From the NCBI GenBank assembly GCA_000182565.2, contig KQ257455.1: DNA of 64,000 nt, one strand, 5' to 3'. Origin of the DNA: Spizellomyces punctatus DAOM BR117. Lineage: Eukaryota. The stretch's first letter is position 1. Every line of letters starts with the position of its first letter. Under the pieces are notes generated by a model, which saw only the letters and a list, made by a program, of their open reading frames with translations, was not told the origin of the DNA and did not search any database. Positions 726 to 55,450 of the stretch are shown one piece after another. A program made the position numbers and the translations under genes.

Positions 726-2900
726 TTAAACCGCACTAAATTTTGCCACAAACGCCATAGGAATCCACCCAACCTCGGGTTTAATTTCGGGTGGTGAGTC
801 TGCTTGCGGCTGCTGCTGCTGCGGGGGTCCGCGGCGGAATCTGTCCGCAAAGCCTCTGGAGGATGATGGGCTTTCGACAGAGGGACTCATAGGCTTGTCA
901 GTCCCGTCCTTTTTTTTACGCTGCAATTTTGTGCCATATATCCAGGTTCCTTGGCGTTTGCGGACTTCGATGACGTCGCCCTAAAAGCAACACAATTGAG
1001 AATTGATGTGACCCACCAGAAACCTCGAGTCACGGATACCTTTGTTAAAGACATTTCCTTTGCGCTTCTCGCCGTAAAATCATGAATTGCATACACAAGA
1101 TCTGCCGCCTTCGTTGATGACATGACTCCTACTAAACTTTCGCTCGCTCCAACCACACTCCCCATTTGGCTTTCTGCATCTCCATCCCCACCCGCCACAT
1201 ATACGGCTGGAGTACGAAGATTTCCCCCGTGACGACTCACTGGCACAGATGCAATTTGTGTGTTCTCGGCGGCGAAGATATCGGGATACAATGACGACAA
1301 GGTAGAGGTGAGATTCTGTGAAGTTGTTGGCTCTATGACCGAGGATCGGACCGTGGCGATAGGTTTAGAGGTAGGAAATGCTACACGACGCTTTTCTCTT
1401 TCGATTGTGCTGCTGCTGTTGTTGGATTTAATGATAGGCCTTGGCGGGAACTGTGATGAAGGAGTAGTAACTGTTGGCGATTGCTCCTTCGGGGATGGTG
1501 CGTCATTTTCATTTCCAAGTCGTGAAAATGCGGGGAGAGAAAGCTGTGGTGCACTGGAATTCGACGCGGCTTCCTCAGCCGCCGTGCCCGACGATGCAGG
1601 TTCCGTAGTATCATTTGCTGTAAGTGATGAATCCTGACGCTCAGGAGCTCCTATCGTTGCAGCTGCTACCGCCCCCGCCAGTTGTGCAACTGCCCGCCCA
1701 AAACTGGCCGATTTCATAGCTTCTTCATGATGTCTCTGGTCGGGGCCAATATTGCTATCTAAGGATCCACGCCGTGACACGCGACGAGATGGTCCATCCG
1801 AAGTTTTAATTGAGTTGTTGCGTTTGCTCGCGCTGAACACTGTCTCCGTCAATATAGCATTGGCGTCAGATTTCTGGTCTTCCGACAGCTCATCAGCACA
1901 TCCTGCTGCACCGGCGACGCACTGCCCAAAGAGGATCGCGAGACTACGTAGCAATGTACTCCACTGTGCCTCCATGCTGCGTATGTTTCGTGCTTCTTCT
2001 CCGAGAATCACATTTTGGTTCACATATTTGAGATCTTGCAGCTCAGCGGTGTACTGGGCGAGATTTCTGACGGCTTGTTGAATTTGTTCAGGGTTGCGAT
2101 TCCGTCGTTTTCGGGTGTCAGTTTCTGCCTTTTTGATTTTGTCCTGAATTTCTTTTCCCATATATGCCAATCGCTTTTCGTTTGCCTTTTCGGATATACC
2201 AATGAGTATTGATCAGCTCCTACATGTCAGCACAAACAACATGCACGAGACTTACCACAACTGTGTTGGCATGTTCTTCAATGCCCTTTTGCAGAGGGTC
2301 TTCCAGCTCTCTTTGAACACGATCACCCAGCTCTCTTATTCGTTTGGACATTGTCAAATGAAGTTCGCCACAGCGCTTTAAGCCATCTATCATGCAGAAG
2401 AAGGGGAATTGGTCCGGCTGCCAAGCCCAAAAGTTTGGCATCAACTACGGATTTTACCTGGTTTTACACCGCCTCGTATTCTCTCTGCCTGTTTGACCGC
2501 TCGGCATCTGCTCAAGTCAATGACAGACTCTGACATATCCTGCATAACGCCGGCCAAAGTCCACAAGGCCATTTTGTATTTGCCAGCAACCTTTAGCACA
2601 GACTGAGATCTCGCAATAACATCCTTAATATCCTGGCGGGATATAGAGTCATTGGGTTGGCCGAGCATATTGCTATAGTCGTAAACGGAGGAAGTCGAGG
2701 AAGAGAGGGACGACGAAGACGGAAACTTTGATAGCTCGGGTCTTTTGGGAGACTCTGGATGGAGCGTCCCCCGAGACCCAAACAAATTGAACTGTGGACG
2801 TGGAATGGTGCTTGATTTGTTGGGGCTTTCAACACGTATCTTCACCTCAAACCTATGGGACTTGGCTGCGAAATGACGACCTCTTGGATGATGCCAACAT
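726..2900 (-). CDS. Helical BAR/IMD-like N-terminus, Ser-rich linker and C-terminal SH3 domain
   Basis: SH3 motifs VYAIHDFTARSAKEMSLTK|GDVIEV...WIYG...VGWIPMAFV across an intron; amphipathic coiled segments in ORFs 2441-3016 and 887-2170. Start uncertain. Confidence 0.7.
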
Positions 2901-3198
2901 GCCCTTGTAAAAAACTGAAACTTTGGCTGACGAAAGTGGGCTGGTTTGGGCTGACGGACCGCGCCGTGATTGATCACGTGTATTAGATTCCATCCATTCT
3001 CATATTTGGTTAACATTTGAAACCTGTGCTGTTACACAAAGCTACTAAGCCCCTACGAGTGGGGTCGGTTGTGGGGACAACAAATTTTCCAGGGTAATTA
3101 ATCACGTGAACTATCCACGTGGTTCGGGATTTGTCATGCATCGGATCTCACTTTGATCACTGTGGAAGAACTTGGACCTTGTTCGCAAAGGGCACGGA

Positions 3199-6743: not shown

Positions 6744-9700
6744 CTACAACTTTGCCTTGCCAGAGGCGAGCTTCAAGACCGCATCAATCTTGCTATTAAT
6801 TTTGCAAGAGCAATGGTGAGACAATCGGAAACATTCATAAACGCATAGAGAGACAACTTACGTCGCAAGTCCCATGTTGCCCTTTATCTTGATGCGGCCC
6901 GCCATGAATGCCTTCTGGGGTTTGAGCTTGCCCGCAGCAAGCTCAAGGAAGTCCTTGTCGCCCACAAGGACAGTCATGTCAGCCTTGCCTGGTGGACTAC
7001 CTGCGCCGATAGCACCCTCGCCATTCTATGTTTGAAAGGGAAAGGTCAGCGGCTGTCTTTCGCAAAGCCCAAATAACAATCACCGAATTACCTTGAGATC
7101 CACAAACCATGTCTGCTTCTTTCCTTCGGCGTTTGTGATTTCGAACGCAAAGATCGACTTGATCTGATGGAGACGAGACGTTAGAAAATAAACCCAAGAT
7201 TAGCCCTAAAGAAAAGGACCGGTACCTTCTTGACTTGCGCGGCCTTAGCAGCGGGAGAGGCGGCTTTCAAGCCAGTCTCAATCTGCTCAAACACCTTGGA
7301 TGATGCAAAGCCAGGAACTGCCACACCGCCGGCAGGTGACGCGGACTCGGTCGTGACAGGTGCCGCTTCACGCTTGGCCTCAGCGGCCGCCGCGGGTGTA
7401 ACATCACCTGCAACGTTGTCAAAGTTTGCTTGCACAGCGGCGAACGACTCTTGCGTGTTTGTGGGGTAGGTGGCCCGGCCATCGTCGAAGTTGGTGATTT
7501 CGGCCCATTTGGCGGCGATGTGTTCGGGAAGGAGAGGTTTGTTCACGGGGAAACCAACGCCACCAGTTCGTTGCCAGCGAACCTTTGCGACCCATGCAGA
7601 GCCGACTTCAAAGACACCACCAGTCTCGGTGTTGCTTTCGTGACCAAGGTAGGCAACCAAAGGAGAAACGTATTCGGGCTTGAGAGCCTCCACCATTTCT
7701 GGAGGCATGACCGTGGCGGTCATACGCGTACCAGCATTGGGGGCAATGGTGTTAACAACAATGTTGGAGCGCGCACCTTCCAAGGCCAAAGTGTTGCTGA
7801 AGGCGACAGTACCCGCCTTGGCTGTGTACATACGGCGAGGTTACCACCAATGCTTGCTGAAGAGACACGGAGTATTTGTTCACTTACCAGCACTGTAGTT
7901 TGCTTGACCAAAGTTTCCGTAGAGACCCACAGCCGAAGTAGTGTTGATGATTCTACCATACTTTTGCTTAACCATATGAGGCCAGGCTGCCTTAGCTACC
8001 TTGTAGGTACCACGAAGGTGGACGCGCTGCACGAGGTCCCTATAGGGTGAAGTAGTATCCAACATCAGCGCCATGTCCATAGGCACCAATTGTCTGACGA
8101 TTGATCCTCACCAGTCGTTGTCAGTCATACGAGCGAAGGATTTGTCACGAAGGATACCAGCGTTGTTGACAATGATATCAACGCGTCCAAACGCTTGGAT
8201 GGCGGTATCAACGACCTTCTCACCATCCTCAACTGAGTCGTAGTTTGCAACCGCCTTGCCTCCCGCAGCACGGATCTCGTCAACAACCTTGTCAGCAGCA
8301 GATTGCTCAACACCCTCACCCTTGGTGGATCCACCAAGATCATTAACGACAACGGAAGCACCGAGCTGAATTTCAAAGATTAGATAGGGTGTCGCATTTC
8401 TTAACAGTAGACATGAGTACCTTGGCGAACAACAATGCGTGGGCGCGGCCAAGACCGTTTCCAGCACCCGTCACAATAGCGACCTTGCCGTCGAAGCGGA
8501 GCTCCGAGGGGTTGGGGTTACCACTGAGTCCCTTAGCTTGTTCCAAAAGCCCAACCCAGTCAGTGTCCATGATGGAGGTGGGGTATTGTGGGTTGTTGAA
8601 ACTCGTGATCTCTCCCCATTTTGCGGCAACGGACGAAGGAGTGAAGGAGGAGTCGGCCTTGAAGACGGCTCCAGGGGACCGCTCCCATCGGAGCTTGGAA
8701 ACGAACCCGGCACCAACCTCGAAGATCGAGCCAGTCTCCTCGGTAGACTCATGGCACAAGTAAGCCACCAGAGGTACGACAAATTCAGGCTTGAGGGCAG
8801 CAAGGATCTCGGGAGGCATGACAGTTTCCGTCATTCTCGACGCTGCAAGAGGTGCAATAGTGTTCACTCGAATGTTCTTCTTTTCGCCCTCCCGCGCCAA
8901 TGTGTTGGAGAATCCAAAAAGCGCCAATTTCGCTACATCCCAGCTGGTTAGTGGCATCCTAAACGACGATATGACAACACACTTGCATACCCGCAGCGTA
9001 GTTAGCTTGACCAAAGTTACCGTAAATACCGGCAGCGGAAGCTGTGTTGATGATCCTAAAAAACGATCAGTCTCCTGTTGTTGTCCACGCAACGTCATGA
9101 ACATACCGGCCAAAACCTTGCTTCTGCATGTGGGGCCATGCAGCCTTAGCGACTTTGTATGATCCACGCACGTGAACACGGTGGACAAGATCCCAGTCTG
9201 CATCCGTCATACGAGCAAAGGATTTGTCACGCAAGATACTTGAGACGCATCTTTTAGTCGATCTCGAGTCCACGTACGTAACGGGCCGAAATACTTACCC
9301 AGCATTGTTTATGACGATATCAACACGTCCAAAAGCATTCAATGCCGTTTCCACAATCTTGTCACCATCCTCAACAGAGTCGTAGTTGCCGACTGCCTTC
9401 CCACCGGCAGCTTTAATTTCGTTCACAACAACGTCGGCGGCCTAAAGACGTAACTTTAGCACACTAATCTTTGTTGTTTTCTAAATGTTTCAGGCACCAA
9501 CCTTGTGGTCGCCACCCTCATCTCCAGTTCGGCTTGAGCCAAGATCGTTCACAACAACCGAGGCACCTACATCAAGGTTAGATCAGACAAGTGGCACTAC
9601 AAGGATGATAGAAACACTGGGGTACAAACCTCGGGACGCAAAAAACGTCGCGTAAGCCTATATGTGAGGGAAATCTACGTGAGCATGCCACACAAAGTCA

Positions 9701-9848: not shown

Positions 9849-10056
9849 GATGGGAAAAGCAAGTGATGAGATTTGGCGGATGAGACCAGTAAATGTCTTG
9901 TCCTTTTGATCACAGTTCAACCTACGTTCGGATCAGAACGGGATTTCTGGGGACGCCGCGTGATCCATAAAATGGGTTGATTTGAAAAGCCGGTTAGATC
10001 CACAAATTCCCACGTGAAAACATGTCGCGTGACCAAATAGCCGAATGAAAGATTTA

Positions 10057-10779
10057 GTGTGTAGGTGATTGAAAATGGCACTAGGACCCAGCATTATCCG
10101 GATTAATCCGGTTAATCATATCACCTAATCAGAACCCCCATCTATCACTCAGATTGGTGTGGCATGTAGCGGTGTGGCATGTATTGTAATGTTTTTTGTT
10201 TATTTTTAAACTGTGGTGAGGCGCATGCTGAAGGTCTATAAAAGGGGACCTGCTCCCTCTTCCGTCTTGTTTCTTTATCCCTCGACTCTCAAAGCATCTG
10301 CCAACGCTCAACTCTCAAGTCCATCATGAGAATCCTGCTCTGGTGCCGACGACCTCGTCCGCCTGACAAATACAACATAACCCCTTGCAAATGCTGCTAC
10401 TACTATATTGCTACGATCGCAGGTATGCATTATCTTTGTATTTTCCCACGCGTATTATCCAGTCTCATTATTCTGATTTTACTAGTATCTGAACATCCTC
10501 TGACTAAAGAATTTCGGAATCAAGGGCTTAGTAGGATTTCTCTCGTGATGTGGGCTTAGTTACCCGGTTAGAACCAACCGTAATGCCTTGCATGTGTAAT
10601 TGGGCCTAGTTGTAGTTGGTTGCACGTACCCCAGTTCAACCCAGGCTGGAACCTGTAGCGAGTTAGGATAGGGGTGGGTTATGAAGGGTTGGACAGGCTG
10701 GCTAATTGTAAATTAGAACCGGCTGTAGTGGGTTGGAGGGAGAATTTGTCTCTAGTGACATTTTCTACCACCTGCACAC
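10057..10779 (+). mobile_element. Non-autonomous TIR element (copy A), TA-flanked; relative of the Fanzor ghost-like element at 43660-44409
   Basis: Left GTGTGTAGGTGATTGAAAATGGCACTAG vs reverse complement of right GTGTGCAGGTGGTAGAAAATGTCACTAG (24/28); TA at 10055-56 and 10780-81; colinear similarity to the reverse complement of 43660-44409. Confidence 0.9.
10237..10243 (+). promoter_or_regulatory. TATA box inside element copy A
   Basis: GGTCTATAAAAGGGG, conserved in copy B, followed by a pyrimidine-rich tract. Confidence 0.55.
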
Positions 10780-10851
10780 TAAGATGTATGGCTTTTGCAA
10801 AAAAGATATCTACAAGGCAAATGGGCTCATGCAAACGTATCTACAAGATGC

Positions 10852-21595: not shown

Positions 21596-22572
21596 GTTGT
21601 ATACAAAAAATTCGAGTTCTACTAGTCAAACAGAATTCAAGGCTTCGAGTCTAACAATGCTCGCTAGCGGATTTATCGTTGTTAAGAATGTTGGTTTCCT
21701 AATGGTGAATTGCAATCTTGTCCTCGTCGTCGTCGTCGTCGTCAGCTGGCAAAACGTTGGGCCTTATTAAAGTCTGAGTTGAAAACTTAAAAGTGTGCCA
21801 CGCGAGGTGTCACAATTGGAAAAGCGCAGCCAATGGTTAAATATGGAAGAAATGCATTGCAAGGCGGTTTGAAGGATGGTTTTGGGCATCTGCTGGGCAT
21901 CATGATGGATGTTGTTAGCTCTTGAACGAATATTTCCTGAAGCTTTGTTGATTCTGGCTATCGTTTCTTAAGCAAATAACAAGTCTACCGGCTTGACTAG
22001 GAAAATGTCAGTTAGAATGGATTTGACAATGGTAGCACAGTCTTTATCCCTTTGTCGAGTGGCCAAAGTCTGCCAACCCTGGCATTTTCATGTTCCTTTG
22101 AACAGATGAGGACAAGAAAAGCTGTAGAATTGCAAAGATGTTTTGAAAAGGATGTTGAAGGATGTGTTGCAACACATCTCGGTCTCGCAACAAGAACGCT
22201 TGTAGCAGATTGTTGTGTGTCGCTCTCTTAAAGGATTTGATGCCCATCATCGCACATTGAATGAGATTTGCAAATACATGTATCCTCTACGAATTCCCTT
22301 CTCCCATCCTATTGCCAAAATCAATGTGCGTAAGAAACCGTCGTCCGTTTGTCGTCGTGAAAGCAGCAAAACCGTTGGTTGATGCTCACGTCATTTGGCT
22401 TTGGATGATTCATGTGCACGCGTATGCCGCGTCTTCCCTGACCTTCCACAGGATTTCATCGTTTGGGGGCAACTATAAAAAGGGCACCACGCTTCTTCCC
22501 CCTCCCCTTCATCAGCTTGACCCGCTGCTTTACTTTTTTACGTCCAATATTTTCACGTCTTCTCCAACCGTC

Positions 22573-23935
22573 ATGTCCGCTGCTCCAGAAAAATACCGCA
22601 AAGAGCTTGCCGAGACTGCCAAAGCTATTGTTGCCCCTGGCAAGGGTATCCTGGCCGCAGATGAATCAACAGGAACTATTGGGAAGCGTTTTCAGAACAT
22701 TCAGGTCGAGAATGTAGAAGAGAACCGGAGAGCGTATCGAGAATTGCTCTTCACCTCTGGCAAAGGTATATCCACGTTGAATGAAGCTGNNNNNNNNNNN
22801 NNNNNNNNNNNNNNNNNNNNNNNNNNNNNNNNNNNNNNNNNNNNNNNNNNNNNNNNNNNNNNNNNNNNNNNNNNNNNNNNNNNNNNNNNNNNNNNNNNNN
22901 NNNNNNNNNNNNNNNNNNNNNNNNNNNNNNNNNNNNNNNNNNNNNNNNNNNNNNNNNNNNNNNNNNNNNNNNNNNNNNNNNNNNNNNNNNNNNNNNNNNN
23001 NNNNNNNNNNNNNNNNNNNNNNNNNNNNNNNNNNNNNNNNNNNNNNNNNNNNNNNNNNNNNNNNNNNNNNNNNNNNNNNNNNNNNNNNNNNNNNNNNNNN
23101 NNNNNNNNNNNNNNNNNNNNNNNNNNNNNNNNNNNNNNNNNNNNNNNNNNNNNNNNNNNNNNNNNNNNNNNNNNNNNNNNNNNNNNNNNNNNNNNNNNNN
23201 NNNNNNNNNNNNNNNNNNNNNNNNNNNNNNNNNNNNNNNNNNNNNNNNNNNNNNNNNNNNNNNNNNNNNNNNNNNNNNNNNNNNNNNNNNNNNNNCAAAC
23301 GGTCTAGTTCCAATTGTAGAGCCCGAGATTCTGATGGACGGTGATCATGATCTGGAGCGGTCGGCTCAGGCCACCACTGAAGTCCTTAGTGCCGTGTTCA
23401 AAGCTTTGCACGACCATCTTATCTTCCTGGAAGGCTCGCTGCTCAAGCCTAATATGGTCCTGCCCGGGTTTGACTCGCCTAAAAAGTACACTCCTCAGGA
23501 TATTGCCAAGGCTACCGTGACTACATTACGCCGTACTGTTCCACCCGCAGTCCCGGGCATTACCTTCCTGTCAGGTGGTCAATCTGAGGAGGAAGCTACT
23601 ATCAACCTCAACGAAATCAACCGTGTTCCGGAAGTCAAGCCGTGGGCGTTAACGTTTTCGTATGGACGAGCGCTGCAAGCATCCGTCCTAAAGACCTGGA
23701 AGGGGAAAAAGGAGAATGTGGAAGCCGCTCAGAAGGTGTTTATTGAACGAGCAAAAGCATGTTCTCTGGCAGCTTTGGGCAAGTACCAAGGAGGTGATAA
23801 AAGCTCGGGTGCTACAGAGAGCTTGTATGTGAAGGTAGGCCACGCTCAAGACTGACAATTTTTCAAGGCACAAAATGTAGAGCTTGAAAGCTAACAATCA
23901 TCCCGTGTCTTCCCTGATAGGATTACAAGTACTGA
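22573..23935 (+). CDS. Class I (Schiff-base) fructose-bisphosphate aldolase; middle lies in an N gap
   Basis: [61 protein letters not shown]-terminal Tyr (DYKY*). Confidence 0.95.
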
Positions 23936-25147: not shown

Positions 25148-26351
25148 TTATCGACCAGCACCCCACTGTGGTGGTGGAGGAGGAAAATGACCTTGTGGAA
25201 ATCCTTGTTGTGGCGGGAAGCCTTGGCCTGGGAAGGGTGGGGGTGGCATGGGTGGTCGGCCAGGGAATGCAGGTGGAGGACCTGGTGGGCGTTCTGAATC
25301 AAGGATGCAAGACCAATAAGTATCGGAAACCTATTTCAATAGTGACATCAAATAATACGCACGCATAGGGGGAGGTCCAGGTGGCATAGGGCGTGGCGGC
25401 GGGGGCTGAAATCCGCCTGGCGGTGGTCCAGGAGGAAATCCTCCAAATGGTGGCACTGGTGGACGGCCCATGAAAGGCGGTGGGGCTGCTGCCTGGGGTA
25501 CGGGTGGTGCCACTGGCATCGGTGCAGGAGGAACAGGCATTGCCACTGGCACAACAGGCATTCCTGGTCGTCCAGGAATATCGGCAAAAAACCGGTTCGG
25601 CAGATGTGCAGGTTGATTTCTCCGCGCTTGCGCGGCCAGCAATCGCTCCGCGGCGCTTCCATGCCGCTCTCCTTTTCCGTCCTTCTTGAATGCATATGAC
25701 ACCGTAATCGCCTTATTCATCAAGTACTGCCCATTCATTGCCTCAATCGCCGCATCTGAAGACTCAAAATTATCGAATGCCACAAATCCGTATCCCTTCG
25801 AGTTCCCTGTATCCGGATCCCGAGCGACCTTGGGTGTTTGTACAATTACGCCGAACGCAGAGAAGGTATCGTATAGCAGTTTTTCGTCCACATCTGGATC
25901 CAGGTTTCCGATAAAGAGCGACGCACCGACTTCGAGATTCTTTTTATCGGATGTAGCTTTGTTTACTCGTATCGGTTTACCAAAGAGTTTGATCATGTTC
26001 ATAATCTTATGCAATACGTGGCATTGCGGGTCAGGCTAGTGAACTATAACAGAAATACTCTGCTCTGTTACCTTGATCGCATACTCCGCATCTTCCTCTG
26101 ACATGTACTCCACAAACCCATACCCCTGATGTTGCTGAGTGACACGGTCTTTTGGCAAATGTACATTGACTAGTAATAGTTATTAGCTTGTTGTAAGAGA
26201 GCTAGTTAACCGCAGGTCGGCAGTTTGGATACTCACCAACTGGCCCAGCTTGCAACATCAACTCCCACAGTAATCCTTCAGAGACCCGATCATCTACATT
26301 TCCAACATATACCGTGGCGTCTTGATTTCGTTCTTCGGGACGGTTGGACAT
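25148..26351 (-). CDS. HSH49: Splicing factor SF3b4 (two RRMs, Pro-rich tail)
   Basis: [60 protein letters not shown]. Confidence 0.95.
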
Positions 26352-26627
26352 GTCTGAAGCTACTCTTTAGCGTTCAGTACTACTTGTAAAAGATTGGTGC
26401 TTGATCAACAAGACACACATGTAGGTCGACTGTGAGTTGTGGACATTGGTTTGTTGCTTGGCAACTGCATCGGATCCAGTGAATGCTAACCACTCTTGGC
26501 TTCAAGTTGATCTGAACTTTCTCAAGTTCTCTCACATTCGCTAGTGGTTGAAATGGCATCTGAATCAGCGTCCAGAAAGAGAAAGTCGCTAACGAAAGAT
26601 GCCAAGGTGTCGAAAGTTTCAAAAAGG

Positions 26628-27950
26628 ATGGACGGGTATGGTTGGCTTACAGCGCAATCCAAAGATCTGCTTGTCTCTTATTCCCATTTTTGCATTCAGA
26701 GAGAGTGTAAGCGATAAGCAAGCGGCGGACTGGGCAGCGGCTCGTTTGGAAGCGGCCATGATGGCACGGCTAGGATTTTCAGGACCTTCCGGAAGGAAGC
26801 GAAAAGCCCACGAAAACAATAGCGGGCCTACCTCAAAAGCCAATTTAGCGAAACGGAAGAAAGTGGACGGTATCGAAGAACAGGGCGAAGAAGGGGATGG
26901 AGAATCAGTGTCAGATGAAGATTTTGAACAAGGAAGGGGCTCGGATGCTGAAAGTGAGTCCGAATCTGAGGTTGACGTAGAGGAGGTAGTGGGTAGCGGT
27001 TATGTTCTGGAGGATATGCGCTCCGATGATGACGAATGGGACGGTGAATACGATGACGATTTAGAGGAAGATAACGACAGTGATGAGGATACTAGCGAAC
27101 ACGATAAATTTCTTTCAACGGTCACTACGACCGGCCCACAAGTGGTTGTATTCCAAGACACCAGTGCACAGCGAAGTGCGCCCGTGGGCAGTAAAGGTGA
27201 CTGGAAAGCCTTCATGTCATCCAACATTAGCAAACTTTCCGGAGAGGCAAAAACCAAAAACCTTACCAAAGAAGAAGCTGACCAGGAAGAGCAGGACAAT
27301 CAACATGACCGGGATCTGATGGAGTTACTCAAGACCACCAAGCTCATTGAAGAGTACAATGCCTCCCAGCTTGCTGGGACGGAAAGACGAAAGTACATGC
27401 AGGAGAAATTGGTAGAGCTAGGTGCCAAACCAGCCAAGCCCAAAGCACCAAGAGCAATCCGCATGGGAATGGAACTGAAAGAAAAAGAACGTGCTGCCAA
27501 ACGACTAGAAGAGGTGCGTTGATAATGAAAGCTCTCAGGCACTACTGTATTTTTAAGTCTAAAGTGTTCTTCTTGTAGGCCAAGAATATGGGGACATATC
27601 ACTCTTCACTGAAGGCCCAAATCATGGGTGAAGCGGGCAAAAAGGAAAAGGAAAGCAAACTAAAGCGGATAAAAGAGCGGGTGAAGGCTCGTAGCAGAGG
27701 GATTGACGGTGGATTTGGAACATTTAGGAATGGAACGCTGCATGTATCAAAGGAGGATATTGAGGCAGTTGAAAAGGCCAGCAGTAGAGGGCGGGGGCGG
27801 GGCCGAGGCCGAGGTCAGGGTAGAGGAAGAGGGGGAAGTAGAGGAGGAGGAGGGGGAAGAGGAGGAGGAGGGGGGAGAGGAGGAGGAGGGAGTAGGGGAG
27901 GAGGAAGGGGAGGTTCCTCTAAACTGGCTGGTCGTAGGGATCGATGGTAG
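26628..27950 (+). CDS. Nucleolar 40S biogenesis factor FAF1/DUF4602-like with acidic tract and RGG tail
   Basis: PQVVVF, WKAFMSS, DRDLMELL, PRAIRMGM, RGIDGGFGTFRNGTLHVSKEDI; GGRGG repeats. Confidence 0.7.
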
Positions 27951-28095
27951 TTTGCGGCTCATTAACATACAATGCAACAACTATTTATTTCACTCAAATT
28001 GGCAAGTCAACATAAGGAGAGGATACACGTTAATGCATAATGTCAATACTATTTTATACAGTGGTCTAAGAATATCGATCGACCTAATGATGATT

Positions 28096-29465
28096 CTACT
28101 CTTGCAAAAGCTTTCGTAGTCTGTTTAGCAACACGTCGTTTTCTTTTTCCGTCCCAATCGTAATCCTAACACACCCCTCACAGCCCAATTCAGTTCCACG
28201 ATATCTCACTACAACCCCTTCTGACTCTGCCAATGCCTTGTAGATACTGAATGCTCGTTGGTTGTCGGGCTTATCATTGGATCCCAATATTGGCACCAAG
28301 ACAAAGTTGGCGTGGTTACCCCCAATAATCTGTCCAACTCCTTTCAGTTTGCTTAGCTCGTCGATAAGGCGGGACCGTTCTGCAAGGATACGTCGGATGT
28401 GTTCGTGCATTTGAGCAATGCCTTCGTCGGTCAATGCGGAGCGAGCCAGGATGGAACTTGGTGTGGAAATGTTATATGGTGCCTTTGTGTTGTTGAAGAT
28501 TTGAGCAATCTCTGGTGATGAGATAGCAACGCCAAGTCTAGATTGAGGGAGATTTCAAGGTTAGTCTAGTCTGTACTTCCAATTGTCATTCCATTAGATG
28601 CGAACCTGATTCCTGCAAGCCCAAAAGCCTTGGAAAGCGTTTGTGTCACAATCAAGTTTGGATACTTGGTAACCCAGGGCGCAACACTAGACCCTTTTGG
28701 ACAGAAATCGATATAGGCTTCATCCACGACAACTACCCCGCTGAACCCTTCATAGTCCAAGATTTCCTTGATGTCCTCGGGGTTAAGAAGCGTTCCAGTA
28801 GGGTTGCCTGGTGAACACAAAAAGATCACTTTAATCGATGGGTCGGCATCCACCGCCTTCTTGATCTGCAACTGATATATGAGTGATACATCTTTTCAAG
28901 TTGCAAAGTGCTCCAGTCTCACCTCATCTGTCTTCAATTGAAACTTTCCACCTTCCACATCCAACGGCACTTTGACGACCTCAACATCATTTATCTGGGC
29001 GCAAACCGAGTACATTCCGTAAGTGGGGGGGCATATCAGCACCTTATCCCGAGCAGGTACACAGAAAACTCGTATTATGAGATCCAAGCTCTCATCAGAT
29101 CCTACACCCAGAAAGAAGTGTTCGGTAGACGGAAGCCCCCGGAAGTTTGCGAGCGACTGCTTGATTTCTTTCTGGTACGGGTCAGGGTAGCGCTCGAGGT
29201 GAGTGTCTGTGTAACTAGGATTGCTTAAAGCGGGAAGCGGTGGTTGATGACCGGCGGGCAAAGATGGTCCAAAGGAGTTTTCGTTGGCGTCAAGTAAAAT
29301 GCCAGTCGAGTAATCGTCTCTGGCGCATCGATAGGGCTGTTCTCAGACAAAGCAAGTGAGAAATGGTTGACCGTGCCGATATAAACAACGTCAGAGCAAG
29401 CGTACCTTCAAAGCCCAGATATTGGGCCGAACTACTGCCTTTAGAGAAAACCGTTCACGAGCCAT
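28096..29465 (-). CDS. HIS5: Histidinol-phosphate aminotransferase
   Basis: ILLDANENSFG, RYPDP, GVGSDE, CSPGNPTG, VDEAYIDF, TLSKAFGLAGIR. Confidence 0.96.
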
Positions 29466-29627
29466 ACCGTATATGAAAACCCGGTGGAAAGTAATTTGGG
29501 GGCAGACGCTGCGATTTGGGAGCAGTGAGATGATCGGCATCTCACAGTTACCATGCCAACAAGATGCGTCATCCATGATTCTACTGATTCATGCTCGTTG
29601 ACTTTAAAATAAACAAAAGGTTAAGCC

Positions 29628-30855
29628 ATGGCAGATCGCAAGAGAGTAACAGTAAGAATCCTTTCTTTAAACACGTAATAGTATAGTAGGTGGATCCATC
29701 TCAAAGCTTTTCTGTTGAAGGGCCCGGAAAAGTCAGTTGTCCCTCTATTGGAACCTGGATCGCTATCAGCATTCACCTTTGACCCTGAGAAGAGAAAAGA
29801 TGGGCGAAACATTGATCGAATACGACCCGTGTGTAAGTGGACGGGCACTTGCTGTCTCGAACGTGCGTGTATGCTCAATTCGATTGGTCGTTATCCAGTC
29901 ATGAAAACAGGGGTGGTCAGACAAGCGAATGGTAGTGCGTATCTGGAGGCAGGGAAGCTGAAGGTGGCATGTGGAGTGTGAGTATTCCTAGTGGACTCTG
30001 CGCCCTTCCAGAATGGTGGCCTCAAACTGTGGACTGACCGACCGCGTGAGATATGATGTTCTGACCCTTCCATCACTATATAGATACGGGCCACGACAAA
30101 CAGCGAGATCAAAGATATCATCTCGTGGTATTCTGAATTGCGATTTCAAATTCTCCCCGTTTTCGGGTGGACGACGAAGAGCGTACATAAAGGTAAGTCA
30201 AGCTCTTTTCCCTCTCTGTTGATGCGCGGTCAACTCATTCTGTACACATCATCTAGGATAGCCAAGAGAAGGAATATTCGCTAGTTCTAAGACAGGCGTT
30301 AGCACCAGCAGTTAGACTTGATCTACTACCCAAATCAACAGTAGACGTTTTCGTTCAAGTTCTCGAAAGCGATGGCTCTGCGGCCTGTTTGGCGGCCGCT
30401 ATCACATGCGCTGCGTTAGCTCTAGCAGATGCTGGAATCGAAATGCTGGATGCAGTGGCTGCTTGTGCTGTGGTATGTTTTCCATTTGCTGCATCTCAAC
30501 CAAGACGACGAGCTGCGGAAATAATACTTGAATTATCTGCTTGTGATCAGGGCTACTTTGACTCAACAATCTGCTTGGACCCGACTGATGAGGAGGAGAC
30601 CTATCAGAGCGGATCATTGGTGCTGTCATATATGCCATCGTTGAACGAGGTGACGCATGTAATACAAAGTGGGGAAATCGGGACGACGACAACAATCAAA
30701 GTATGCATGCGTCGACACGTGGAGATGAGGTCTACGCTAACTAACGATCATTAATCTAGGCGTTGGAGCTTTGCGTGGATGCATGTGCGCAAATTCAGTC
30801 TGTGATGCAGCAGACACTAGCTGCAACGATCAAGGAAAAAATAAATGGTGCCTAA
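29628..30855 (+). CDS. MTR3: Exosome RNase PH-like subunit (Mtr3/EXOSC6-like; Rrp41 not excluded)
   Basis: RKDGR..DRIRP, GVVRQANGSAYLE, YGPR, PKSTVDVFVQVLESDG, AITCAALALADAGIEM. Confidence 0.75.
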
Positions 30856-31188
30856 TAGCAATTTATATACAATGATGAAAAATTGCAGTCGTCTTGAGAC
30901 CTATGCACGTTGTCTTTGCTGTTCCACTGCAACCATTGATGTAATTTAAGAACTTCATGCTATGCACACCATTTCTTCAGCATGCGAACCACGCCCGTAG
31001 GCATCGATTACAGATGCTGTCGCATGTTCCTGTAAATGGACAATAAAGATCTTTGGTAGAGGATATACTGGATACGGGCATCATACAACAATCTCCCATA
31101 TCCGGCAGCGGAGAGGGGCATAAAGTCCAAGACAAAACGAGCAAAAAAAAGACATAATGGTGATTTCGATATATTATACACTCGACGC

Positions 31189-31910
31189 TTAGAAGGTGCT
31201 GGGGCGGACACCAGAGAAGACGGGGCGATAACGCTTGCTGGCAGGGCGGGTGACCCGGTGGGGCAGAGGGAACTTGAGCTTGGGCTCCTGTTGTTCCAGA
31301 ACAAAACGATTAGATTCTGACCCTCATATGTTTACCAAGGACCATGTCGATACTTACCAACAACTGCCTGATGTAAGGACGGCGGACGTCAGCACTCTTC
31401 ACCTCAGCAACCTTGATGATCTGGATCGAGGAGAAACGGGCACGGTGACGGGCAGCCATGTCCTGGTCTATGATCCTCGGGATTAGCCATTGTCTCAATC
31501 TTTTACAGCGTCCAGAAACTCACAGCAAGCGGCGACGGCGTCGGTACGAGTGAGTTCACGGTACTCCTTGTACATGTTGTGAGTACCAGAGCGGGAGTCG
31601 TAACGGATCCAGATACCAAAGTTCTTGACAGTCAACGGCTTCTTCTCAAAGATCTTCAGAAACAAGCAATCATCAACACCTCGTTCCGGTTATATCGGCG
31701 CTTTGGTTTCCTCCTTCCTACCTCGTTGACAGCCACAATCTCACCGGACGCCTTCTTGACCTTGTTCACCTGCTTCAAGAAGTACCAGAAGCGACTCTTG
31801 GCAACGACTTCGTTGGGAGCGAAGAGACGCATGCGGTACAACTTAGGGACCGGCTCCTTCTCCGTGGGAGTCCGGCGGCCAATAACCTGGTACTCGTGCA
31901 GTCTGCCCAT
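31189..31910 (-). CDS. RPL20: 60S ribosomal protein L20 (eL20/L18a)
   Basis: [13 protein letters not shown]...[45 protein letters not shown]. Confidence 0.97.
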
Positions 31911-32520
31911 TTCTGCGATTCTGTGAATGCAAAATTCAAATGTCAGCGATATGCAAATGCGTCCCTTCCTCCAACCAAGCACTCGTACCCTAACTGGAGA
32001 AACAAAAAAAAACAGCAATAGGTTAGCTCTCCACTGTAGTTACAAGCCGTCGCAAGAAACTTGATTTACCTCCGCAAAGGTGAGTAGATTGAATCGTTTA
32101 TCTTGCCACGGCAGAGATTTTCAAAGGAAGAAGGGCTCCTTGTGGTCGCTTGGATGGAAGAAAAACCAAAAACTCGCCTGTTGCCCAAAAAAGGAACTCG
32201 TCGGATGTGATTGGATGGCTTCTTGTTTGGAATGTATTGGAATGTGGTTGGATATCCAGATATCTATATCACATGACTTTTATATCTATGGCAACCAACG
32301 TCTGGACGATTGCTGCGCGTCGAGGTGGAGCGCGTCAGCGTGCAACTATCCCTGCTGTTGATACCAGAGTTTTCAACAGCCAGGTAAACCCAGCGGGTGT
32401 GCAGAGTCGGTCATTACCAACGTCGAGCGGGACGTTGAACTCGCCATTTCGAACGTCTTTCTCACTTGTTTCCTTCATTTTCGAATATAAATACCACTAG
32501 TCAAGTCGCCAGATCACTGA

Positions 32521-34356
<1,836 letters not shown>

Positions 34357-41850: not shown

Positions 41851-42369
41851 TGTCCCTGCCGGAAACATGTGGAAACACGATCCAACGATTGTAAACACAA
41901 TGAGAAAACCAGTCGACGACAATTGCCAAAACGTCCTACACGTTCTGGACGTACTGCGCACGCGAAAGCCAAAAGCGCGATAACCTTACGTAATGTATAA
42001 AGTAATCATCCACGTGCGTCTGTCACATGAATTCAAGCGGAGTCATCGCTCGAGGCTCCTTTCGTCACCTTTTCCCCCTCCTTCCATCTTCCTCGCCAGG
42101 TTTCCTTCCCATTGGGCATCGCCAACCATCTTTCTTGTCCATTATTCTTTTTTCAACTGGCCTCATCCCCCCCACTCCCCGTCCCTGCAACCGTAACGGG
42201 CCGAGAACCCATCTGCATTAGCACTTCTGTGGACGTTTTTACTTTGCAGCCAGCTTGAAACAATTCCTTGCACTTATCGTAACTTTGAGCAAAAACTCTT
42301 CCTTTCCTTTACATCTGCATGATTCTCCCTTCTGCTGTCTATTGGATTGTAGCAGAAAGGGTGGGTAAA

Positions 42370-43440
42370 ATGTCCGTGCCGGGGCTCCAGGCCCTGCACG
42401 CAGGCTATGCATTGCTCCAGGTCAGTGTGAAAGAAGCGCTTATACTCTGCAAAACACTATTTGACTTTCATCCCCCGGATAGTTACTTTGTATATATTTT
42501 GCGGTGCTGGCCTATAGACGATCACGTAATGGTGCCCCGGGTGCCATAGTCTTTGCTGTGTTTGCTGGCCTCAAGTGCTTTGATGATCTCTTGGTAGTCA
42601 TTGGACCTTGGCTTGACGCATCTCCAACCCATCACGCCGTTCTTCGAGGATTGTCGGCCTTTAGCTATTTTGCTGGATGCCTTACGCAACCTTCCCTCTT
42701 CCTTGTTGCCTACGAACTATGCCATACTTTACACGGAGGTCCGAAACGACGCTTGCTAAGCCGCGATCAAGTGGGTCGAATCGGGGCCTTAGCACTTACC
42801 TGCAGTTTTGCCACGTATGAGATCTTGGATTATGCTCTCTATTCCAAAGTGGCCGATTCGATTGTGCTCCGGAAGCCCTGGGGTGTTCCCGTGTACGAGG
42901 TAGAACGTGGAATCTTCAGTGCGAGCGTGTATACCCGGTTCGCGACATGTCTTATGCTGTTAGCGGCTGGTGGGTGCCTTTGGGCGCGGACACATTATCC
43001 ATGGCTGAGTTTATTACAGTTGGTTGTTTTGTTGGGTCAAGGTAAGGAATGCATAATACAACGCGCAATGTATCAACTGTTGTGACTCATGATTTACATC
43101 TCGTCATCTAGTAGCGACCTTTCATGCAGCATCGTACCAAATCTTTCTCGATTCTGGCTGGGATGTTGTATTCTCTCTCTCTTTAGCAATGGCACACTTT
43201 CACGTCATGGGTAATCAAGAGGAAGAGGAAAAGTTTGAGCCGTTGCTGTTTGGCGACGACTCTGCGCGTTGGTATGGAGCCGTGGAGGTTTGGGCAGACG
43301 GACATCCAGCTTCTTCATCACCGACACGGTGGAAAGGAAAGGAAGGAATCGTCATTGTATCGCAACCTGATGGAGGGCAGACGGGCAACCCACCCTATAC
43401 GGCAGTTGAGCGAGGCGACAGCGATCGTACGATAGCCTGA
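42370..43440 (+). CDS. Hypothetical multi-pass membrane protein
   Basis: Three exons with GT-AG introns and several hydrophobic helices; no family recognised. Confidence 0.6.
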
Positions 43441-43642
43441 GGAAAATCATCATAGCTGGGCATATTTATACGGGGTTTATTGTATATTTTATCTGGACAC
43501 ATTATGGGATCTCGTAATTTGAAATACAGACATATAAAACTGTATCTCAAGTCATAACGGATATTGCTATTATTTTATGATGGGCGCATTGGTTGAGGTG
43601 CATTTTGGAAAACGCAAAACGACAGTAGTCGTCTTTCTTATT

Positions 43643-43731
43643 TGGTTTGCCGAACGTTAGTGTAGAGGTGACAGAAAATGGCACTAGCTACTACACCAGG
43701 GAATAAACCGGCGACAACCGGTTCGGAAAAG
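43643..43731 (-). ncRNA. Putative Fanzor omegaRNA: ~74-nt scaffold (43658-43731) plus flank-derived guide (~43643-43657)
   Basis: CTTTTCCGAACCGGTTGTCGCCGGTTTATTCCCTGGTGTAGTAGCTAGTGCCATTTTCTGTCACCTCTACACTA; stems AACCGG/CCGGTT and TGGTGTAG/CTACACTA; resembles the SpuFz1 scaffold as recalled. Confidence 0.75.
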
Positions 43732-44409
43732 CTAACTAAGCTACTACTAAGCAATTATACACGCAATACGTAACGGTTGGTTCTAACCGGATAATTGCCC
43801 ACCACCACACGCGGTCCCTACTAGGCCTTGATCCAGAACTCTTGATGGCATTGAAGCCAGAGTCTTCGCAACATTGGGGAGACTCGCAAGCTGGAGGATG
43901 TTCAGTGACAAGGCTTGGAGACTACAAAAAACTGCATGTCAGCGAGGTGAAATGACAGAATGAAATGATGCCATTGGTACATACCAACCAAGCTCAACTA
44001 ATGTGGCAGCATAATAGTAGGTTTTGTTATCGGATCTGATTGGTTGCCACTGGTTCTGATCACGGTTGCTGTCGGGCGGTCAAGGTCCTCGGCACCACCA
44101 CATCTGTATTCTCATGATTCGACCGACAGTCGTGATGAGAAGAGTTGCACAGATGCTTCGAGAGTCGAGGATGGGTGAAGAGGAAAGAGGGAAGAGACAG
44201 AAGGCCCCCCTTTTATAGACCTTCCGCATGTGCCTCACCGCAGTTTAAAAAAAAAGTTACATTAGCATGCCACACCGCAGTTTGGAGAACATTAGCATCC
44301 ATGCCTCACCGCTTTGAGCGATAGAGGGGGGTTCTGATTATGCGATATGATTAACCGGATTAATCCAGATAATAATGGGTCCTAGTGCCATTTTCAATCA
44401 CCTCCACAC
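43660..44409 (-). mobile_element. Non-autonomous TIR element (copy B), Fanzor 'ghost'-like: 5' CATA, TA flanks, 3' omegaRNA-like end, no Fanzor ORF
   Basis: TIRs GTGTGGAGGTGATTGAAAATGGCACTAG / GTGTAGAGGTGACAGAAAATGGCACTAG (25/28); TA at 43658-59 and 44410-11; CATA on the minus strand at 44410-44413. Confidence 0.88.
44211..44217 (-). promoter_or_regulatory. TATA box inside element copy B
   Basis: GGTCTATAAAAGGGG on the minus strand, same position as in copy A. Confidence 0.55.
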
Positions 44410-44524
44410 TATGATGTGGCTTAGCGGTGCGAATGACCAACGAGAGCGGCTCTCGCGCCCGTTGAGAGATCTGCGAGATCGTGCCTTCATTAGACCAAAC
44501 TTCAAAGGTGAAACCAACCTTCAG

Positions 44525-46679
44525 ATGCTGGAACAAACGCACTTTGACGCCATTGTTCTGGGTACTGGTCTATCAGAGTCCATTATTGCCAGGTAGGCAC
44601 CCGCTAGCACGACCACCCGCGCTGTCTGCGAACACTAGTTGCTGACATGTTCAAAGTTCGCTAGCACGAGCTGGTAAAACAGTTTTGCACCTCGACCGCA
44701 ACATATTCTACGGGGACCATTTTGCATGTTTTGATTTAAAGACCTTTTTGAGGGTTTTGTGTGTAGAGCGAGGTATGACAGTAAGTAGTTTACCGTTTCG
44801 GTGAGATACTGATGTGTGCCTTGTAAAGATGAGACGAACCCTTTTAATGCGGCGTACGGTGATGTGGAGGTCGTGCTGCGAAGTGGGTCAAAAGAGGAGG
44901 TCGAGAGACTTGCGGGTATTCAAAAGAGAGAAAACACTGCAAATGAGGAACCAGCGACGTCTGAGGTAGCTCAGGACTTGCCCACTGACGACGGAGCAGT
45001 GGAAACCAATGGCCCAATACAAACGCCAACACCCAACTCAATCTCTACTATCCTCGATTTTCTCAAGCAAAATGCCAACCTCGTCCCCGTCTTCAAATCC
45101 CTCTTGGCTGATCCCGATCCCTCCGTCACTATCGCATCACTCGACCCATCCGACCCTCTCCTCCCAAAGTACACCATCCTTGCCCACCTTCTAACCCAAT
45201 CCCGGCAATTTAACATTGATCTAGCACCCAAACTCCTATACAACCGGGGGCCTTTGGTGGAATTGTTGATATCGTCGGGGGTGGGCAAGTATTTGGAATT
45301 TAAGGCTTTGGAGAGCGTGTATCTTTCGTGGCAGGGGAAATGTGAGCTGGTATGCTCGTGTGCTCATCTTTGATTGTATGAGAGGCTTATGCTGTGATGT
45401 ATAGGTACCTGGCTCAAAAGAGGACGTGTTTTCGAATCAGAGCGTCAGTTTGGTGGACAAACGGCGGCTAATGAAGTTTCTCACTTTTGCGGTGGAGTAT
45501 GAAGCACAGCCGGAGATTTATCAAGGTGAGTAAGCGTGCCACGAGTACTCGGATTACATTGTACTCATATACATGATCTTTAGACTTTGCAACGCGGCCG
45601 TTCATTGATTTCCTACGTGATCAGAAGCTGAGTCCTCGCTTGATATCGTTCATCCTGCATGCAATTGCATTTGCAGTGGACCGGGCTGACTCAGAGACCA
45701 GTATGTACTCTGCATTGATCACGAGTGAAATTTGAATCTAAAGTTTCAAAAAAAACAGTCACTACGGTCCAAGGACTTGCCCTCACGCAACGTCACTTGC
45801 AATCCCTAGGAAGATGGGGTAAGACAGCATTTTTGGTTGCGCTGTATGGAGCCGGGAGTGAGCTCTCGCAGGCTTTCTGTAGGTCCGTTTTTGTGGCATC
45901 TGTGGGAAGTGCGATACTGGGATCTTACTTTTCTTCAGATTTTGCGCAGTGTATGGAGGGATCTATATCTTGAATTTCCCAATATCAACAATTTCCATAT
46001 CTGAGGATCCCGACCGGCGGTTCAAGGTGGTTGGGAGTGATGGGGGAGAGTACACCTCGTCCTGGCTGGTGACTTCATCAAATTATGTTGGCAACTTACC
46101 GCAGGGGATGAACGTCGACATGAAGAGGTATCCGTGCACTTGGGCTAATACTGTAGTGCAGGAATTAATGTGCCATGTTGTTCTAGTACTCGTGTCTTGC
46201 GTGCCATGGCCATCTTGGATAAACCAATTCATGAGGATACCAATCTGACTGTAACCGTCTTTCCACCTGACTCAAATAGCAACACACAAGGCATCATCGC
46301 AATCCAGCAGAGTTGGGACGTGAGCGCATGTCCAAAAGAATATTGTAAGTCTTGTCTGAATTTTACATAATGCGCTTCATATCTAATGTCCGTGCTAGAC
46401 ATTCTCCATCTCCATTCCCCGAGCCCACAAGCCACCCACCAAGATTTCAAGGCCATTCTCTCATCTCTATCCTTGGACCCCCTAATAACAGTCTTTTATT
46501 CTCAAACAGTCCAAGTTCCCTCTACGATGTGGGTAGCGGATCATCTGGCGTTTGTTGGATCGAATGTGGTGGATGTGGATTTCGAGAGTGCTGTGCTGGA
46601 TGCTAAGGCAGTCTTTGAAAGAATCGTGCCTGACGAGGAAATTTTTGGGGGTGTCGTTGCAGAGGAGGACGGAGAGTAA
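44525..46679 (+). CDS. MRS6: Rab escort protein (Rab geranylgeranyltransferase component A)
   Basis: FDAIVLGTGLSESII, VLHLDRNIFYG, SRQFNIDLAPKLLY, VPGSKEDVF, LYGAGSELSQAFCR, CAVYGGIYILN; long insertion typical of REP rather than GDI. Confidence 0.88.
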
Positions 46680-55064: not shown

Positions 55065-55450
55065 CAATCGTCTCTGCTAGATCGCTGGTCGGCCGGCCCG
55101 CGCATTGATCTGCGGACGGGGAACTCGGCCGACCCACGCTTCGAGAATCGTCTCTGCGAGACCGCTGGTTGGCCGGCCCGCGCATTGAGAAGCGTCTCTG
55201 CGGACCGGGAACTCGGCCGACCAGCGGTCTCTCAGAGACGGTTCCGGACAGGAAACTCCACCGGCCCACGCTTCAAGACGGTCGGCCGGCCCTGCGGACG
55301 GGGAACTCGGCCGACCCAAGCTTCAAGACGGGGCCACGCTTCAACAATCGTCTCTGCGAGATCGCTGGTCGGCCGAGCTCCCTGTCCGCAGAGACGATTC
55401 TCGCCGACCCACGCATTGAGAATCGCCTCTGCGGACAGGAAGCCGCCGAC
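55065..55450. repeat. GC-rich complex repeat of direct and inverted units
   Basis: AATCGTCTCTGCGAGATCGCTGGTCGGCCG-like unit at ~55066, 55146, 55346; CTGCGGACGGGGAACTCGGCCGACC-like unit at ~55109, 55198, 55292; inverted copies at ~55214-55240 and ~55375-55401. Confidence 0.85.

Follow-up and report, generated by a model that had tools for sequence, protein, structure and literature searches.

In IS200/IS605 elements, the tnpB transcript is cut so that its 3' end becomes the omegaRNA of TnpB. The present analysis concerns a 64,000-nt stretch of Spizellomyces punctatus DAOM BR117 (GenBank assembly GCA_000182565.2, contig KQ257455.1), referred to throughout as the window, in which two copies of an inverted-repeat element, copy A and copy B, probably represent the 'ghost' loci of the Spu-1 group. 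The interior of this element was found to be transcribed and spliced, and its transcript probably ends in an omegaRNA scaffold. Ghost loci were described from S. punctatus in Saito 2023 (PMC10432273), where 42 Fanzor loci were reported together with 134 loci that have the repeats without a Fanzor open reading frame (ORF). As described there, a ghost consists of a conserved region of ~550 nt between 30-nt conserved inverted repeats, with CA upstream of the left repeat; the 75 nt at its right end resemble the omegaRNA scaffold of Fanzor loci, and no transposase is reported within the Spu-1 repeats. The same source gives the omegaRNAs as 88–90 nt in length, with a guide of 14–15 nt taken from the flank, and the target-adjacent motif (TAM) of SpuFz1 as CATA; 75-nt ghost scaffolds worked with SpuFz1 when expressed from a U6 promoter in human cells. 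For SPu-1, a Fanzor1 element, TA target duplications were described by Bao & Jurka 2013 (PMC3627910).

Both copies resembled these systems in their ends. The element proper occupied 10057–10779 (+) for copy A (723 bp) and 44409–43660 (-) for copy B (750 bp), so that the region marked by the initial annotation, 43922–44345, was only part of a larger element (Table 1). TA stood on both sides of each copy, as it does for SPu-1; that element differs in being ~2.1 kb long with a single Fanzor ORF of 633 amino acids (aa) (PMC3627910), whereas there is none here, and the longest stop-to-stop frame wholly inside either element was 105 aa. The inverted repeats of copy B had 30-nt arms that were 90% complementary, copy A likewise had terminal repeats of ~30 nt, and matches to the core of the repeat were confined to the four ends of the two copies in the window (0 expected by chance). 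The elements therefore agreed with ghost Spu-1, as characterized in the published text, in having 30-nt inverted repeats, no Fanzor ORF, more than 100 copies and a conserved right end of 75–80 nt that includes the repeat, the last being compared by description only. Additionally, the left junction of copy B was CATA (44413–44410), i.e., CA before the repeat giving the CATA TAM, while that of copy A was TTTA (10053–10056), with TT in place of CA; CA was thus present upstream of the left repeat in one copy of the two. Where the published account treats the interior as a conserved region, here it was resolved into motifs, a TATA box, an exon, a spliced intron and a structured module. Judged by the published verbal description, copies A and B are probably ghost Spu-1 elements. 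The sequence strings of the inverted repeats had no match in the literature, and a wider look at publications on miniature elements, TATA boxes and splicing produced nothing of relevance.

Identity between copies A and B was uneven along their length. It was 77% from the left end to the TATA box, 70% from there to the first ATG, 54% in exon 1, 54% in the intron interior (gapped alignment) and 43–48% beyond. Against this background stood islands of near-identity: the TATA block, the sequence around the ATG, the splice sites, a core of 43 nt and the ends.

There were 24 sequencing runs with matches to 43400–44700, and Logan contigs from four of these (X1, X6, X12 and X16) were aligned to 42000–46000 at 85% likeness; depth, as given here, is one value per contig, summed over family members of at least 85% likeness. 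Run X1 was genomic, since its records 1 and 8 continued unspliced through three introns of the flanking genes and across the junction of element and flank. Run X6, labelled 'DNA?', was complementary DNA (cDNA) of the same strain, because its contigs 25 and 27 skipped eight GT..AG introns of both flanking genes, to which they had 0 mismatches. Run X12 was a declared RNA-seq run. Neither X12 nor X16 covered any sequence beyond the element, and no conclusion was drawn from this; likewise, the root, rhizosphere and soil labels of the other runs, with their small shares, carry no information on habitat. Depth in X1 was 2.7–2.9 for the single-copy flanks, 301–325 for the TATA region and 435–573 for the right end, which corresponds, as a rough contig-depth estimate, to ~110–120 family members with the promoter block and ~160–210 with the right end. 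This suggests a family of about 100–200 copies. Apparent relatives in Joint Genome Institute (JGI) metagenomes, found at six loci with a degenerate repeat pattern, were set aside; the three that were examined shared only a 21-nt pattern, looked bacterial and were attributed to chance.

The initial annotation had predicted an intron of exactly 63 nt in each copy, with diverged interiors, and this was so. The pattern GTATG[CT]..CTRAY..YAG, with a length of 50–80 nt, occurred 12 times on both strands of the window, which equates to ~0.07 per 750-nt strand. Alignment of the four runs produced 13 joints, comprising eight introns of the flanking genes, two at the predicted intron and three length variants of other copies. 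The joint 43921->43985 skipped precisely the 63 nt of the copy B intron, its CT..AC on the plus strand being GT..AG on the minus strand; it was seen in three contigs of X6 (depth 204, side 26) and in one contig of X16 (depth 36.4, side 35). A minor joint in X6 (43921->43989; one contig, depth 47) skipped 67 nt and indicated an alternative 5' splice site 4 nt upstream. In X12, record 11 aligned to 43747–43922 and ended in 13 loose letters that, by eye, were the end of exon 1 joined to 43922, while a second contig had 16 loose letters before 43985 that were the start of exon 2. No contig of the genomic run X1 contained the joint 43921->43985. Given the joints in X6 and X16, the matching loose ends in X12 and their absence from X1, the intron is real for the copy-B subfamily, and the splice junctions proposed at 43922–43984 were recovered as predicted.

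Among the variants listed, none of at least 10% affected the GT or AG dinucleotides, while a 3-nt deletion beside the 3' splice site accounted for 28.5 of a depth of 210.1. The intron interior was covered at only 5–24, and interiors therefore differ among copies. The eight confirmed introns of neighbouring host genes were 55–70 nt long, and three of the eight began with GTATG; hence, the element introns fit host introns in length and start. An interpretation of the intron as an introner, or as host to a small nucleolar RNA (snoRNA), was rejected, the intron being internal to the element and, at 63 nt, too short for a snoRNA.

RNA depth in X6 rose steeply along the element in the direction of its minus strand. 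Upstream of the TATA box it was near background (16.4 at 44320–44326), and it then climbed from 881 at 44224–44225 to 1512 at 44205, about 2600–3010 at 44124–44160 and 24317–44535 at 44037–44082 (36676 at 44082). Inside the intron it was 0 (43947, 43966), and it resumed at 25363–33644 for 43811–43862, reaching 106042–148901 at 43705–43719, compared with 17–42 for the flanking genes. The ratio of X6 to X1 depth at the same places was about 0.1–2.8 upstream of the TATA box, 15–50 just downstream, 160–300 in exon 1 and 50–350 from there to the right end, while flanking genes gave about 11. The dip in depth within the leader arose because the copies diverge there; loose ends in X16 at 44116/44119 continued upstream for 54 letters that belong to a different leader. 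These values, which are indicative, suggest an abundant RNA whose start lies downstream of the TATA box, and the enzyme would be RNA polymerase II. The polymerase II-like cassette proposed at the outset thus gained support from the rise in RNA depth downstream of the TATA box and from splicing in X6 and X16.

The upstream region had a consistent organization in both copies. The motif GGTGWGGC occurred 11 times in the window, compared with 3.6 expected, and none of 100 shuffles reached 11; six of these occurrences belonged to the elements, with three per copy, in the same orientation and upstream of the TATA box. The initial annotation had stated that an ATG followed each motif, which was correct for the first and second motifs in both copies and slightly loose for the third, where GC or CA intervened before the ATG. 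A length variant in X12 (44255->44296) had the upstream motifs more closely spaced. The subterminal palindrome was perfect in copy A (CCGGATTAATCCGG, 10098–10111) and had a single mismatch in copy B, as had been claimed. Similarly, the predicted TATA box and pyrimidine tract were present in both copies; the box was identical in copy A (10233–10247), a C/T-rich tract followed it in each case, and no variant of at least 10% fell inside the box among the variants listed for contigs of X1, X6, X12 and X16.

Exon 2 contained a Y-shaped module, consisting of an outer stem and two hairpins, which took the same shape in both copies. In the two-copy alignment all 37 of 37 cells were paired; two pairs had changed on both sides and three on one side, and an indel of 2–3 nt had its counterpart on the opposite strand of the stem. 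In slid controls the paired share was 30–39%. Shuffles equalled the observed value in 116 of 500 cases, the comparison involving two sequences from which the structure itself had been derived, so the pairing evidence is suggestive only. The module would fit an RNA made from the strand of the promoter, because its G-U pairs work on the transcribed strand only and would be A-C mismatches on the opposite strand. Folding of the whole 3' exon was no better than that of shuffles in either copy (z = +0.97 and -1.16). One genomic contig of X1 (joint 43705->43837, depth 3.2) was missing 131 nt (43706–43836), the Y module included, and therefore at least one copy has lost the module. A further length variant, 43817->43877, was present in X16.

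Beyond the variable part of exon 2, the last ~80 nt were common to the copies and the sequence just upstream was not. Loose ends at 43739/43732 in X1, X6 and X12 marked a sharp boundary where copies cease to match copy B. The fold of the last 77 nt gave z = -3.2 for copy B and z = -1.4 for copy A. Rfam returned no matches at gathering scores in the window, and two at chance level in copy B (E = 2.9 and 8.4). The contigs carried the transcript close to this block; X12 record 11 linked the splice junction to 43747, within ~10 nt of it, and overlapping contigs (X12 records 9–11) extended into the right repeat. On the logic of the TnpB system, CATA and the 15 nt that follow copy B on its right would together rebuild the empty site, as in homing. 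The left junction of copy A is TTTA and not CATA, so that a guide from this copy would find no TAM at the empty site of copy A.

Taken together, these results favour a mobile RNA polymerase II unit within a ghost-type element, whose spliced, non-coding transcript ends in an omegaRNA scaffold; the probability of this reading is put at about 0.68. Transcription and splicing were observed directly, and we infer that the 3' end of the spliced transcript gives rise to the mature omegaRNA, which fits the contigs that reach to ~10 nt from the 3' block. In this scheme, approximately two thirds of each element would be a self-contained polymerase II unit that comprises, in order from the left end, three GGTGWGGC motifs, the TATA box, a C/T-rich leader, a non-coding exon 1, the 63-nt intron and exon 2; the latter would pass through the Y-shaped module into the conserved right end of ~80 nt that would serve as omegaRNA scaffold. 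Transcription would read ~15 nt into the flank, and cleavage of the capped, spliced precursor, with either Fanzor provided in trans or host nucleases as the agent, would free an omegaRNA of 88–90 nt from its 3' end. Supply of guide RNA would be the reason why the cassette is kept. Like the TnpB omegaRNA, this arrangement has a scaffold at the right end, a guide from the flank and a longer, element-driven precursor; unlike it, the setting is eukaryotic, with a TATA promoter, a spliceosomal intron, a non-coding precursor and a nuclease provided in trans. In snoRNA and microRNA host genes, a capped, spliced, non-coding polymerase II transcript carries a small structured RNA. The element transcript would be comparable in being mainly a carrier of a small RNA, and would differ in that this RNA would lie in the last exon and continue past the end of the element, instead of being intronic, and in that the whole gene is mobile and multi-copy.

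The same promoter, exons and intron could instead be a relic, either a captured fragment of a host gene or an ancestral gene of the element, which is transcribed and spliced without having any role, while the omegaRNA is made independently from a start near the scaffold or by read-through from a host gene. Exons and intron interior are indeed equally diverged (54%, 54% and 43% identity), the 3' exon as a whole folds no better than shuffles, one DNA contig dispenses with the 131 nt that include the Y module, and the 75-nt ghost scaffolds by themselves suffice with SpuFz1 under the U6 promoter in human cells (PMC10432273). Yet a relic would hardly retain a TATA region at ~110–120 times single-copy DNA depth with no variant of at least 10% in the box among those listed, and splice dinucleotides that are likewise free of such variants; nor would conservation be expected to peak at the GGTGWGGC motifs, the TATA box, the splice sites, the Y module and the ends instead of being even, or RNA depth to continue unbroken between exon 1 and the right repeat. 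A relic was accordingly judged rather unlikely. A further proposal sees in the element a small coding gene, whose ATG-led frame gives 56 aa in copy A when spliced (77 aa unspliced); this micro-protein would be the real product. The ATG context, ATCATGAGAAT, is the same in both copies, the blocks MRI..W.CR.PRPPD and YYY.AT keep frame despite a length difference of 21 nt, and of the nine positions where A and B differ within these blocks, six are third codon positions (p about 0.04, post hoc). In copy B, however, the frame meets a stop at codon 12 (44082–44080), although this stop is private, all other contigs having another base at 44082. Exon 1 measures 97 nt from the ATG in copy A and 131 nt in copy B, and because of this the intron phase and the frame of exon 2 differ between copies. 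The nine sites in exon 1 that vary within the family are spread 3/3/3 over codon positions; the unspliced 77-aa ORF had no relative among 5.8 billion proteins, of either 42–135 aa or 136–2000 aa, and in PDB it produced no Fanzor match, its sole match being a RING finger protein at a chance level (E = 0.25). A coding role was considered very improbable, and the transcript was read as non-coding.

The identity of the element itself can also be questioned, since an ordinary miniature element of Tc1/mariner type, unrelated to Fanzor and coincidentally similar to ghost Spu-1, would equally be flanked by a duplicated TA target site and end in inverted repeats, as both copies do. Consistent with this, no Fanzor or transposase gene was present among the 20 of 47 window ORFs of at least 150 aa that were scanned, the likeness to Fanzor loci is known by description only, and copy A has TTTA rather than CATA. 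The coincidence would, however, have to extend over several independent matches to the published description, namely 30-nt repeats, TA, a copy number close to 176, a right-end block of ~80 nt with sharp limits, CA before the left repeat of copy B and a fungal host. The scanned ORFs included no transposase partner, and no joint representing an empty site across the whole element was found in contigs of X1, X6, X12 or X16. An element unrelated to Fanzor was regarded as distinctly improbable.

Several observations weigh against the reading of the elements as ghost-type units with a spliced omegaRNA precursor. The label of ghost loci, which came from the initial annotation, stood as a fit to the account in Saito 2023, and it is a fit to wording. 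The interiors between the repeats are 663 and 690 nt long, compared with ~550 nt in that account, segment identities between A and B range from 43 to 77%, and copy A has no CA. Native small-RNA evidence in the same source concerns four Fanzor loci and not ghosts (PMC10432273). With respect to transcription, contig depths cannot rank genes, which makes the step in expression indicative only; no RNA 5' or 3' ends, small-RNA ends or single long molecules were seen, Logan contigs of long-RNA or DNA runs being of a kind that does not show ends. The RNA/DNA ratio of the 3' block, at about 240–270 compared with 160–300 for the exons, gave no clear sign of extra accumulation, and no contig in X1, X6, X12 or X16 spanned the splice junction, the right repeat and the flank together. 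The contigs across the junction have short sides (26–35 nt) and possibly derive from sister copies instead of copy B, while the intron of copy A is a prediction, the RNA alignment having covered copy B.

Table 1. Positions of features of the two elements in the window, with strand and the basis on which each was placed
Feature	Position	Strand	Basis or remark
Copy B, whole element with TA flanks	43658..44411	(-)	inverted repeat search and alignment
Copy B, left (5') inverted repeat	44382..44411	(-)	repeat search; CA directly before
Copy B, subterminal palindrome CTGGATTAATCCGG, one mismatch	44355..44368	(-)	sequence
Copy B, three GGTGWGGC motifs	44310-44303, 44276-44269, 44239-44232	(-)	motif search
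Copy B, TATA box GGTCTATAAAAGGGG	44207..44221	(-)	sequence, alignment
Copy B, C/T-rich leader and exon 1	43985..44206	(-)	ATG at 44115-44113
Copy B, spliceosomal intron, GTATGT..GCTGAC..TAG, 63 nt	43922..43984	(-)	spliced contigs
Copy B, exon 2, variable part	43740..43921	(-)	includes Y-shaped module
Copy B, Y-shaped RNA module	43799-43751	(-)	folding, two-copy alignment
Copy B, conserved 3'-terminal block, ~80 nt, candidate omegaRNA scaffold	43658..43739	(-)	contig boundary, folding
Copy B, right inverted repeat	43658-43687	(-)	repeat search
15 nt beyond copy B right end, expected guide position	43643..43657	(-)	inference from the logic of Saito 2023
Copy A, whole element with TA flanks	10055..10781	(+)	sequence and alignment
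Copy A, GGTGWGGC motifs (10156, 10171, 10215) and TATA box	10156..10247	(+)	motif search, alignment
Copy A, predicted intron, GTATGC..CTGAT..TAG, 63 nt	10423..10485	(+)	sequence pattern, alignment
Copy A, Y-shaped module	10553..10606	(+)	folding, two-copy alignment
Copy A, 3'-terminal block with right inverted repeat (10752-10781)	10705..10781	(+)	repeat search, folding

The window otherwise contained ordinary fungal genes. On the left side of copy B, the cDNA contig of a GDP-dissociation-inhibitor gene began at 44455, only 44 nt from the left repeat (44411–44455), and the promoter of that gene must therefore overlap the element. Copy A was arranged head-to-head with a short-chain dehydrogenase gene, ~200 bp from the start of the gene (9850–10057), and both copies were tail-to-tail with a gene on their other side. 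A neighbouring ORF of 585 aa was fungal and arrestin-like according to the protein atlas, an assignment that stops short of a phylum. Elsewhere, two tandem short-chain dehydrogenase paralogues (7181–9450) contained repeat blocks that were 73–83% identical and ~1.1 kb apart, and at 55066–55443 a dense block, in which inverted repeats of 26–57 nt were interspersed among direct repeats of ~44 nt, overlapped ORFs on both strands. An ORF at 22261–23307 matched the initial part of class-I fructose-bisphosphate aldolase (E = 1e-22), a class that is unusual for a fungus.

The kind of element described here is known, while its cassette of promoter and intron, with the splicing confirmed here, seems to be novel. 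In the main text of Saito 2023 (PMC10432273) 'intron' occurs 0 times, 'promoter' is used for vectors only and the interior is given no role; the accessible text of Xu 2024 contains no 'ghost' and nothing on native transcription. The literature searched, which excluded supplements and extended-data alignments that may show the conservation unnamed, held no description of a promoter, splicing or biogenesis for Fanzor ghosts, and within those bounds the initial annotation was right to regard such a cassette as undescribed for ghost loci. It similarly held no description of the native transcription or maturation of eukaryotic Fanzor guide RNAs, which in published work, so far as the sources cover it, are driven by U6 or yeast vector promoters.

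It may be suggested, tentatively, that ghost Fanzor elements are mobile guide-RNA genes, having as their sole product a spliced precursor whose 3' end becomes the omegaRNA. If so, each copy would be no gutted leftover: it would carry a strong polymerase II promoter, an intron that functions and a structured module acting as escort. More than 100 of these units, with expression clearly above that of the neighbouring housekeeping genes, would supply most of the Fanzor guides of the cell. The biogenesis of eukaryotic omegaRNA would then run through polymerase II transcription and splicing. If ghost elements give most of their length to a conserved polymerase II promoter, intron and carrier RNA, guide output would be under selection, an argument for functional ghost guides, and there would be a natural polymerase II route to guide RNA. 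The GGTGWGGC motifs, the TATA box, the intron and the Y module would be concrete parts that could be tested in a transformable chytrid, and since the CATA of copy B together with its flank would aim a guide at the element's own empty site, the homing model would be testable at a defined locus.

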